Source: Patescibacteria group bacterium (GTDB taxonomy: Bacteria; Patescibacteriota; Patescibacteriia; UBA9934; GWF2-40-263). From it: a stretch of DNA of 64,000 bases. The stretch lies in the NCBI GenBank assembly GCA_041661745.1, contig JBAZTR010000001.1, positions 79,740-143,739 of the forward strand. The letters are read 5' to 3'. The translations under genes were made by a program, and so were the position numbers. Position 1 is the first letter of the stretch. Every line of letters begins with the position of its first letter. Positions 37,167 to 38,824 of the stretch are shown in pieces. Under the pieces are notes generated by a model. It saw only the letters and a list, made by a program, of their open reading frames with translations. It was not told where the DNA came from and ran no database searches.

Positions 37167-37282
37167 GCCCCCACCCCAACCCTCCCCCGTCGTGGCGACG
37201 AGAGAGGGAGAACTAATTTATTGGTTCTTCCTCCCTCGTATGTCACTAGTTAACATACGGGGGAGGATAAGAGGAGAGGGCC
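37167..37282. repeat. MITE-like G/C-rich inverted-repeat element (copy A, atpG-atpD spacer)
   Basis: The first 47 nt are identical to copy B. Nested inverted repeats (CCCCACCCCAACCCTCCCCC ... GGGGGAGGATAAGAGGAGAGGG) enclose internal hairpins. Confidence 0.7.
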
Positions 37283-37298
37283 TTAAACTTACAAAATT

Positions 37299-38707
37299 AT
37301 GCCAACAAACCAGAAACCAATCATCGCTCAAGTTATCGGCGCGGTCGTCGACGTCCGTTTCCCCGGCGTAGCCGGGTCCGGCTCCGCCGGAGAGGGCGGA
37401 GAATTACCAAAAATCACCGACGCTTTAAGTGTTGAACGCAAAGGCGACAAACCGCTCGTTCTTGAGGTGGCTCAACACCTTGGTTCAGGCTTGGTACGCG
37501 CCGTGGCCATGTCTTCCACCGACGGTCTTCGTCGTGGTATGGAAGTTGATGTCCTTGGCGGACCAATTTCCGTTCCAGTCGGTCCAGAAACTCTTGGCCG
37601 CATGCTTAATGTTACCGGTGAACCAATCGATGACATGCCGGCTCCTAAAACTAAAAAGCGTTATCCTATTCACCGCAGCGCGCCGGAATTTATCGATCAA
37701 TCCACCAAGTACGAGATTTTTGAAACCGGTATTAAGGTTATCGATCTCATTTGTCCTTTCTTAAAAGGTGGAAAAATTGGTTTGTTCGGTGGCGCTGGTG
37801 TCGGTAAGACTGTGGTTATTCAGGAGTTGATTCACAACATTGCCAAAGAGCACGGCGGCTATTCGGTTTTCGCCGGTGTTGGCGAACGTACTCGTGAAGG
37901 TAATGATTTGTATTACGAAATGAAAAATTCCGGGGTGTTAGAAAAAACTGCCATGGTCTTTGGTCAAATGAACGAACCGCCGGGTGCCCGCGCTCGCGTG
38001 GCTCTTTCCGGTTTAACCTTGGCTGAATATTTCCGTGACGACGAAGGTCGCGACGTGTTGCTTTTCATCGACAACATTTTCCGCTTCACTCAGGCTGGTT
38101 CCGAGGTGTCTTCTTTGCTTGGTCGCATTCCTTCGGCCGTGGTTATCAGCCAAATTTGGCCACTGAAATGGGCGCCCTGCAAGAGCGTATTACTTCTACC
38201 AACAAAGGTTCCATTACTTCCATTCAAGCGGTTTACGTGCCAGCCGACGACTTAACCGACCCGGCTCCGGCCACCACTTTCGGTCACCTTGATTCGACCG
38301 TGGTTTTGACTCGTGAATTGGCGGCCTTGGCCATTTATCCGGCTGTTGACCCGCTTGATTCTTCTTCCACCGTGCTTGATCCGGTGATTGTTGGTGAAGA
38401 ACATTATCAAGTAGCCCGCAACGTTCAAAAAGTTTTACAGCGCTATCGAGACTTACAAGACATTATTGCCATTCTTGGTATGGAAGAATTATCTGAAGAA
38501 GATAAACTTACCGTTAATCGCGCTCGCAAAATTCAAAAGTTTTTGTCTCAACCTTTTTCGGTCGCCGAAACTTTCACTGGTCGTCCAGGTAAATACGTGA
38601 AGTTATCTGAAACCGTCCGCGGCTTTAAAGAAATTTTGGAAGGCAAGCATGATGATAAAGCTGAACAAGCCTTTTATATGGTTGGGGGAATTGATGAAGT
38701 GGTTTAG
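37299..38707 (+). pseudogene. atpD: F0F1 ATP synthase subunit beta, reading frame disrupted by a 1-nt deletion (or a sequencing error)
   Basis: Two ORFs (37299-38255 and 38156-38707) together span beta. Expected GCCGTGGGTTATCAGCC reads GCCGTGGTTATCAGCC near 38147. Walker A GGAGVGKT is present. There is an extra Gly/Ala/Ser-rich insert near the N-terminus. Confidence 0.8.
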
Positions 38708-38824
38708 GCCCCCACCCCAACCCTCCCCCGTCGTGGCGACGAGAGAGGGAGAACAATAGAAAACAAATAACTCCCCCAAGAATTCTCCCTCCCTCATATG
38801 GCCGCATATGGGGGAGGGTAAGGG
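38708..38824. repeat. MITE-like G/C-rich inverted-repeat element (copy B, atpD-atpC spacer)
   Basis: Starts right after the atpD stop. Its GGGGAGAGGG end sits about 6 nt before the atpC ATG. Confidence 0.7.

Follow-up and report, generated by a model that had tools for sequence, protein, structure and literature searches.

The atp operon of a Candidatus Uhrbacteria genome (Patescibacteria, candidate phyla radiation (CPR); lineage placed by the AtpG protein) carries C/G-rich palindromic doublets in two of its intercistronic spacers, here called elements A and B. We analysed them within a window of 64,000 nucleotides (contig JBAZTR010000001.1 of GenBank assembly GCA_041661745.1, positions 79,740 to 143,739 of the forward strand); all coordinates below refer to this window. 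Our analysis indicates that A and B are probably palindromic doublets of a cross-phylum family, organised like bacterial interspersed mosaic elements (BIMEs) or doublets of repetitive extragenic palindromes (REPs; such doublets are termed REPINs), which were inserted in atp junctions and form intercistronic stem-loops there. The repeat itself, its fold and the family membership of A and B are shown by the analysis. The best-supported view of them is that of mobile or copy-spread palindromes that are tolerated or retained as mRNA stem-loops. The two elements and their parts are as follows.

37167..37281, + strand: element A, C/G-rich palindromic doublet in the atpG-atpD spacer (repeat search, fold, alignment).
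Parts of A: C-tail and left arm, 37167-37188; local hairpin CGTCG-TGG-CGACG, 37188-37200; GAGAGAGGGAGAAC, 37200-37213; GGTTCTTCCTCCCTC, 37223-37237; local hairpin, 37237-37259; G-arm, 37259-37280.
38708..38831, + strand: element B, C/G-rich palindromic doublet in the atpD-atpC spacer (repeat search, fold, alignment).
Parts of B: C-tail and left arm, 38708-38729; local hairpin, 38729-38741; GAGAGAGGGAGAAC, 38741-38754; loop, 38755-38779; GAATTCTCCCTCCCTC, 38780-38795; hairpin CATATG-GCCG-CATATG, 38795-38810; G-arm GGGGGAGGGTAAGGGGAGAGGG, 38810-38831.

Element A begins 1 nt past the atpG stop codon (TAA, 37163-37165) and leaves 18 nt between its G-arm and the atpD ATG (37299), while B begins immediately after the atpD stop codon (TAG, 38705-38707) and its G-arm ends 4 nt before the atpC ATG (38836). 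An earlier, sequence-only reading of this DNA had reported an identical 47-nt 5' part for the two copies, and the repeat search found exactly this (37167-37213 equals 38708-38754). Both copies are real, although the end of B had been placed too early, at 38824 instead of 38831, and A is best delimited as 37167-37281. Beyond the 47 nt the elements align with indels, at 81% column identity overall. The 20-mer CCCCACCCCAACCCTCCCCC has two sites in the window, one in A and one in B, at up to three mismatches, with none expected by chance and none in shuffled sequences. When folded as RNA, the A spacer reached a minimum free energy (MFE) of -62.6 kcal/mol (z -6.4, 42 bp) and the B spacer -64.8 kcal/mol (z -4.7), and no shuffle was as stable in either case. 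In both spacers the MFE structure is a single long imperfect hairpin of about 40 bp. The two internal hairpins described earlier do exist locally, but only as alternative pairings within this long hairpin.

Members of the same family were found far beyond this lineage. An exact-match scan with CCCCACCCCAACCCTCCCCC of one genome per species (596 Gb) returned at least 120 loci in at least eight phyla, where about one would be expected by chance (estimated from 596 Gb and 4^20). Among the matches listed, the hosts include Alpha-, Beta- and Gammaproteobacteria, Dehalococcoidia, Aggregatilineales, Planctomycetes, Desulfobacterota, Cyanobacteria, Spirochaetes and Nitrospirota, with Azospirillum, Bradyrhizobium, Variovorax and Sphingomonas as cultured isolates. 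The idea of a CPR-specific family was dropped, the repeat being present also in Proteobacteria, Chloroflexi, Planctomycetes, Cyanobacteria and other phyla. In nearly all matches listed, the 20-mer is followed by a loop of 1-9 nt and then by GGGGGAGGG, which pairs with CCCTCCCCC, so that each unit is made up of a C-tract tail and a 9-bp hairpin. In 44 of 121 scorable matches a hairpin with a GGGTTGGGGTGGGG-like tail follows as an inverted unit, and 25 of these doublets measure 85-125 nt. A and B are built in this way. With a more specific pattern, at least 118 metagenome loci were found, on contigs almost all of 53-75% GC, and the 20-mer is contained in 48 viral contigs (IMG/VR). Family units are most commonly flanked by CA on their left side and by TG or CC on their right. 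We considered GAGGGAGAAC after the hairpin as a sign of deeper homology and rejected it, because the scan had required this motif and an unbiased set shows many variants after GGGGGAGGG. Single C/G modules also form tandem arrays in which CCCCCCACCCCAACCCTCCCCCACAAGGGGGGAGGGAGAACACTT is repeated head to tail with a period of 45 nt; these often lie at the ends of contigs (loci L173, L231, L245, L179, L189 and L211; metagenome Ga0078972 and others).

We found no established name for the family. Rfam 15 at the gathering score matched none of the elements and returned only two tRNAs in the window, and at E up to 10 it gave chance-level matches only; 12 loci with the canonical doublet gave none. 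A literature search for the exact arm sequences yielded no matching paper, both 9-mers appearing only in unrelated eukaryotic or vector papers, and a search on CPR hairpin repeats and PF05635 returned nothing relevant. B had no BLAST match among PLSDB plasmids, a result that is uninformative since the arms were probably masked by the low-complexity filter. Such tracts are often translated as spurious peptides in proteobacterial annotations, and the motif may be informally familiar.

REP and BIME units are short G+C-rich imperfect palindromes, often arranged as inverted doublets of about 100 nt, that are extragenic, including intercistronic, and co-transcribed; they stabilise upstream mRNA and bind integration host factor and gyrase (PMC3184786). 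The family described here is likewise made, at family level, of short, G+C-rich, imperfect, extragenic and multicopy palindromes, and its inverted units join as doublets that form a larger hairpin, in A and B as in the 44 doublets elsewhere. The likeness to the REP/BIME/REPIN systems of E. coli, Pseudomonas and Stenotrophomonas thus lies in palindromic units set in inverted doublets, outside genes and between cistrons. In contrast, REPs are specific to a genus or species, start with GTAG and are linked to REP-associated tyrosine transposases (RAYTs), while here the 20-mer spans at least eight phyla, the units start with a C run and the conserved 5' GTAG beside the palindrome is absent. The missing GTAG, the lack of a RAYT beside the members sampled and the cross-phylum spread set the family apart from the known families of REPs and of MITEs (miniature inverted-repeat transposable elements), even though it is of the palindromic-repeat kind. 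What we describe is a palindromic module of about 40 nt with an identical 20-mer in at least eight phyla and in viral contigs, outside the Rfam families and the literature searched; as known REP-type repeats are lineage-specific, its spread prompts the question by what it is recognised or moved.

The sequence-only reading had called the elements MITE-like. Classical MITEs are non-autonomous derivatives of insertion sequences (ISs), moved in trans by a DDE transposase with duplication of the target site, and A and B resemble them in their size (115-124 nt), in their inverted termini (C-arm and G-arm pair in the MFE fold, and 44 inverted doublets occur elsewhere), in their long hairpin and in being non-coding. 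Their presence varies among relatives and the family is dispersed in many genomes, as a MITE would be. However, no direct repeats flank A (TAAT, then G...C, then CTTAAA) or B (TAG, then G...G, then AATT), and 37 of 42 doublets elsewhere have no target-site duplication either, the same as with shuffled partners. We found no transposase, cargo or ORF-bearing parent IS, the 18 inverted module pairs that lie 250-3000 nt apart holding ordinary genes or translations of repeats, and each end of an element is itself a hairpin, in the style of REPs and not of a plain terminal inverted repeat. A classical MITE is thus an improbable explanation, and with neither a target-site duplication nor a transposase found, a REPIN/BIME-like organisation is the better fit.

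Two further systems offer partial parallels. Correia elements of Neisseria are inverted repeats of 100-155 bp that lie inside transcription units and form an RNA hairpin cut by RNase III. They differ in having 26-bp terminal inverted repeats and a TA duplication and in being confined to Neisseria, whereas no target-site duplication is seen here. Rickettsia palindromic elements insert in frame within genes, comparable to a single C/G module at 2885-2933 in a surface loop of the RsmB/F gene (see below). A and B are intergenic and belong to another host lineage, and this likeness is one of build and not of sequence comparison.

We then compared the atp operons of nine relatives. In L248 and L249 (Uhrbacteria, AtpG 62-64% identical) the atpF-atpH (b-d), atpH-atpA (d-A), atpA-atpG (A-G), atpG-atpD (G-D) and atpD-atpC (D-C) junctions measure 1-8 nt, with the exception of the A-G spacer of L249, which is 46 nt long and contains a small C/G hairpin. 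Most of these junctions measure 66-185 nt in the window and in six genomes whose AtpG is 76-88% identical, mostly with z-scores of -3 to -18; in the window, L124, L126, L127, L129 and L250 the lengths are mostly 93-185 nt. Which hairpin is found changes from junction to junction and from genome to genome. At least seven sequence families are involved, most with arms made of tandem 7-9-nt units. The families, and the occupants of the G-D junction, are listed here.

Hairpin families at atp junctions: C/G; GTTCAA; CGAATATACGAAT; GGGGTTAGGGG...CCCTTTCCCC; GTGATGGAGTG...ACTCCATCAC; GAGTAGYGAGTAG; GTAAAAACGTAAAAA.
G-D junction, window and L124: C/G doublet.
G-D junction, L299: single C/G module.
G-D junction, L126: GTGATGGAGT hairpin.
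G-D junction, L250: CGAAT hairpin.
G-D junction, L129: PF05635 gene in a hairpin.
G-D junction, L127: small hairpin.
G-D junction, L300: empty, 9 nt.

L124 is the closest relative for which there is a long contig (AtpG 88% identical), and its b-d and A-G elements belong to families other than those in the window. Since these junctions are only 1-9 nt long in some relatives, the elements are insertions, and the earlier description of A and B as a true dispersed inverted-repeat family held up when the atp spacers of relatives were compared. Elements at identical positions in all relatives would have suggested a conserved regulatory structure; instead the junctions are empty in L248, L249 and L300 and carry other families in L126, L127, L129 and L250. 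Insertion is therefore the derived state, with families turning over at one and the same junction, and the comparison speaks for insertion and turnover rather than for a regulatory structure fixed long ago. A position directly behind stop codons is not a trait of the family, as 243 members showed no excess of stop codons of long open reading frames (ORFs) 0-11 nt before the C-tail; the tight fit behind stop codons in Uhrbacteria results from the short ancestral junctions. One essential operon thus provides a before-and-after series, with junctions of 1-9 nt in some genomes and, in others, hairpins of 66-185 nt that belong to at least seven families; in this series the origin and turnover of intercistronic structure are tractable by comparative genomics and metatranscriptomics.

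Two side observations concern these spacers. A hairpin behind atpE (window 33591-33636, atpE-atpF spacer) is the only one kept in all six in-clade genomes; at six of its 11 pairs at least one sequence has a compensatory change, and the outgroup spacer is structured but aligns poorly. Spacers of L126, L127, L129 and L250 have differing arms around a similar apex, made of GGAA, an A/T-rich palindrome such as TCTATTATTTAAATAATAGA, and TTCC, which suggests a common core with exchangeable arms.

The orthologue of A in L124 gives a measure of constraint. Between the window and L124, atpA, atpG and atpD are 62-64% identical at third codon positions, whereas the stem segments of the G-D element are identical at 78 of 81 positions (96%), the differences being loop indels. 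The 5' module of B, including its loop GTCGTGGCGAC, is likewise identical at 46 of 49 positions to the module after atpD in L250 (AtpG 80% identical). Stems at 96% against synonymous sites at 62% point to constraint or homogenisation, and they may be either under selection or held near the family consensus by copying. As the loop of the L124 G-D element is unlike that of A, the 47-nt identity of A and B is best read as a recent gene conversion, in which the 5' half of A would have been copied from B.

Another explanation is that the elements are neutral selfish DNA with no role at the RNA level, tolerated because they neither terminate transcription nor disrupt genes. The rapid turnover of families at the same junctions, the empty junctions and an operon that works without the elements in L248, L249 and L300 all agree with this. 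The difference between stems and synonymous sites speaks against it, as does the location of five of the eight hairpin elements of the window in the atp unit. We regard neutrality as a possible but rather unlikely account.

A scan for promoters and terminators in the atp region predicted a single unit.

32205..40166, + strand: predicted transcription unit atpI-B-E-F-H-A-G-D-C, followed by a PF05635 gene and a carbonic-anhydrase-like gene (promoter/terminator scan).

The gene order is as given in this line. The top promoter-like site lies at 32205-32233 (10/12) and the top terminator-like site at 40138-40166; every atp hairpin element falls between them, and the scan found no terminator-like or promoter-like site at any of these elements. 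Lying inside the unit without such signatures, A and B would be transcribed within the polycistronic mRNA. In the mechanism that we propose, each copy consists of a C-tract tail with a short hairpin, a spacer, and a short hairpin with a G-tract tail. In one sub-clade of Uhrbacteria, the C/G family and at least six other families of long hairpins, some with loop ORFs, would have entered atp junctions that were originally 1-9 nt long. Co-transcribed A and B would fold in the polycistronic mRNA into branched stem-loops of about 40 bp and could serve as intercistronic processing or stability elements, either through double-strand cleavage by RNase III or by blocking 3' exonucleases. The outcome would be segment-specific mRNA levels for subunits that are required in different amounts. 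The strict conservation of C-tail and arm could reflect recognition by a putative factor, such as a mobilising enzyme or a binding protein. The role as RNase III site or exonuclease block is one that we infer by analogy with REPs, Correia elements and rRNA intervening sequences.

Several points weigh against this interpretation. The outer stem of A is degenerate in the predicted fold, and the window contains only two C/G copies in 64 kb. No RAYT or other transposase was found beside family members in about 240 sampled loci, a sampling that did not include a PF01797 scan of the window or of the complete genomes of relatives. The family statistics come from the matches listed by exact, pattern-biased scans and are no census. 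The identity of the stems could reflect homogenisation among copies and not a function at the level of the host. Finally, cleavage, effects on stability and even co-transcription are steps that we infer.

Because B ends so close to atpC, the sequence-only reading had proposed that the element supplies the ribosome-binding site of this gene. A motif is indeed there: GAGG ends 5 nt before the atpC ATG (38836), a suitable Shine-Dalgarno distance, while A, at 18 nt from its ATG, lies too far away. This could be extended to a translational control of atpC, in which the G-arm acts as the Shine-Dalgarno sequence and the C-arm as an anti-Shine-Dalgarno-like sequester, tuning synthesis of the epsilon subunit. 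The CCCTCCCCC/GGGGGAGGG pair does mimic the anti-Shine-Dalgarno/Shine-Dalgarno duplex, and a few family members lie just before an ATG (L183, L184, L200 and L217). However, when we scanned 61 gene starts in the window for GGAG, GAGG, AGGA or GGGG at -18 to -4, only eight had such a tetramer, which makes the claim of a ribosome-binding site weak. None was seen at atpE, F, H, A, G and D, and the usual leader is A/T-rich, commonly with AAT or AAAT directly before the ATG. Relatives that carry other D-C hairpins have no Shine-Dalgarno motif at atpC, and the G-arm is paired in both the MFE and the centroid fold. Nor could a portable ribosome-binding site be upheld as a general trait of the family, since long-ORF starts were not enriched 0-11 nt behind the 3' arm in 207 members. 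Shine-Dalgarno sequences appear to be largely lacking in this genome; the elements are probably not needed as donors of them and are unlikely to be ribosome-binding sites, and translational control of atpC is very unlikely. For annotation this means that G-rich arms in a largely Shine-Dalgarno-less genome should not be called ribosome-binding sites.

The same tracts could in principle adopt a G-quadruplex or i-motif. In this explanation the conserved tracts (G5 A G3 TT G4 T G4 on one strand) would form a four-stranded structure that competes with the hairpin and acts on DNA or RNA. Four G or C tracts with loops of 1-3 nt are the conserved part of the family, and with the ViennaRNA G-quadruplex parameters a canonical single module reached -25.8 kcal/mol as quadruplex against -22.9 kcal/mol as hairpin, the G-tail of B alone giving -15.1 kcal/mol. 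In the full elements of the window the hairpin wins widely (-64.5 kcal/mol), and we rejected the quadruplex as their dominant fold. The G-arm of A moreover has lost two G3 tracts (GG ATAAGA GG), and the other hairpin families of the operon have no G tracts. It is therefore hardly probable that a quadruplex explains the elements.

Some hairpins at atp junctions contain genes. The clearest case in the window follows atpC.

39284..39716, + strand: hairpin cassette after atpC with a PF05635 ORF (23S rRNA intervening-sequence protein; E 3.7e-34) at 39318-39677.

Its inverted arms, 39284-39309 and 39691-39716, match over 26 nt at 77% and over 22 nt at 82%, and the predicted fold pairs the flanks of the cassette. 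Similar PF05635 cassettes occupy G-D in L129 and D-C in L300. Intervening sequences (IVSs) of rRNA consist of a long stem with an optional PF05635 ORF and are removed by RNase III. The three cassettes share with 23S rRNA IVSs the long stem in a host RNA, the optional gene in the loop and the sporadic distribution among relatives. They differ in location, being found at intercistronic mRNA junctions and not in a 23S rRNA helix, and A and B have no ORF. PF05635 genes in hairpin loops at mRNA junctions nonetheless connect the IVSs of rRNA with a broader class of hairpin cassettes.

These cassettes suggest another origin for A and B, as non-autonomous shells of IVS-like elements (with PF05635 four-helix or DUF559 proteins) that spread between junctions and are excised from the transcript. 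PF05635 genes within hairpin arms at three atp junctions (after atpC in the window, G-D in L129, D-C in L300) agree with this, and although A and B have no ORF, the orthologous D-C C/G elements of L250 and L124 do. In L250, a DUF559 (PF04480) endonuclease-like ORF (7404-7880) follows the 5' C/G module behind atpD and the contig ends before atpC; in L124, the element holds a 400-nt insert with two small ORFs. On the other hand, the PF05635 proteins of the window and L129 are only 54% identical, which indicates no recent transfer, and ORF-bearing and ORF-less elements have arms of different sequence families. The right end of the L250 element is off the contig. To our knowledge, PF05635 proteins have no nuclease or recombinase activity. 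We consider this origin unlikely for A and B. A broader scheme would see a superfamily of IVS-like cassettes at CPR intercistronic junctions, the forms with ORFs autonomous and those without not, in which cutting of the stem separates the atp mRNAs; the C/G palindrome would be its inter-phylum mobile member, found also in viral contigs, and the C-/G-tract end the site of a putative factor. This we offer as speculation that is more likely wrong than right by a good measure.

Apart from A and B, the window contains further elements, one of which had been taken for a third, diverged copy, and a pair of which had been overlooked.

34162..34251, + strand: GTTCAA-rich hairpin in the atpF-atpH spacer (repeat search; MFE -39.1, z -5.4).
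36159..36248, + strand: GTTCAA-rich hairpin in the atpA-atpG spacer, inverted relative to 34162-34251 (MFE -39.8, z -5.8).
28138..28233, unstranded: "copy C", a G-arm-first hairpin of another family (GGGGACAGGGGTTAGGGGA ... CCCTTTCCCCTGT; MFE -47.4, z -7.0).
2885..2933, + strand: single C/G module, hairpin CCCCTCTCC-TTGCGAA-GGAGAGGGG plus G-tail TGTAGGGGTGAGGT, in frame in the RsmB/F gene.

The GTTCAA-rich pair, overlooked earlier, consists of 90-nt elements that are 94% identical and mutually inverted; it represents a sequence family other than C/G and the same phenomenon. The supposed third copy has its G-rich arm 5' and its C-rich arm 3' on both strands, opposite to A and B, and for this reason it is not alignable with either and not a diverged copy. 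A 40-aa ORF precedes it and a terminator-like hairpin follows it, and it aligns, including its loop, with the elements of L126 A-G, L126 atpE-atpF (c-b) and L124 A-G. The stretches at 60757-60783 and 61066-61114, also described as related arms, are C-tract or G-tract stretches that each stand alone, with no partner arm, and are not copies. Single-arm C-tract leaders of the CCCTTNAACCCC type (mRNA strand) were seen before start codons at 61066-61114 of the window (minus strand), at 3341-3385 in L126 and at 3338-3394 in L127, and they may be half elements or unstructured leaders. Outside the operon, long hairpins with periodic arms lie at 25799-25890 (GTAGTAT units, between two ABC-3 transporter genes, for the ATPase and the permease) and at 53309-53403 (ACGAAAC units, between greA and lysS), so that the phenomenon extends beyond atp.

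The module at 2885-2933 lies inside the RsmB/F methyltransferase gene (2395-3321, minus strand), where it encodes TPTPLSFARRGE. The corresponding loop carries inserts in seven proteins, including that of the window, those in the other six being 3-21 aa long and mutually different, and it is free of inserts in at least 12 proteins, among them P0124 at 80% identity. A C/G module CTCCTTTACAAGGAGAGGGTAGGGGTGAGGTAAG is also in frame in the proline-rich linker of DnaX (DNA polymerase III gamma/tau; 1060-1124 within the ORF 36-1508), encoding PLQGEGRGEV. An arm-like stretch within atpG (36874-36907) was rejected as an element, being a low-complexity variable loop of the gamma subunit (QASQAFPASQA). 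In the gamma subunit P0018 the variable loop has a 20-aa insert with a peptide typical of another repeat (AGLRKGERDPSLAQDD).

Such modules may sit in frame within genes and contigs break at these repeats, both of which matter for annotation. Logan contig L003 is broken within the GTTCAA repeat 36159-36248 and within element A. The elements themselves were also present in an independent ENA assembly that is 99.98% identical across 18 kb. In the window, a 1-nt deletion in GTGGGT (gtggtt here) at 38137-38146 divides atpD between two ORFs (37299-38255 and 38156-38707); as the 99.98%-identical ENA contig has an intact atpD of 469 aa, the split probably stems from an error of assembly or sequencing or represents a strain variant.

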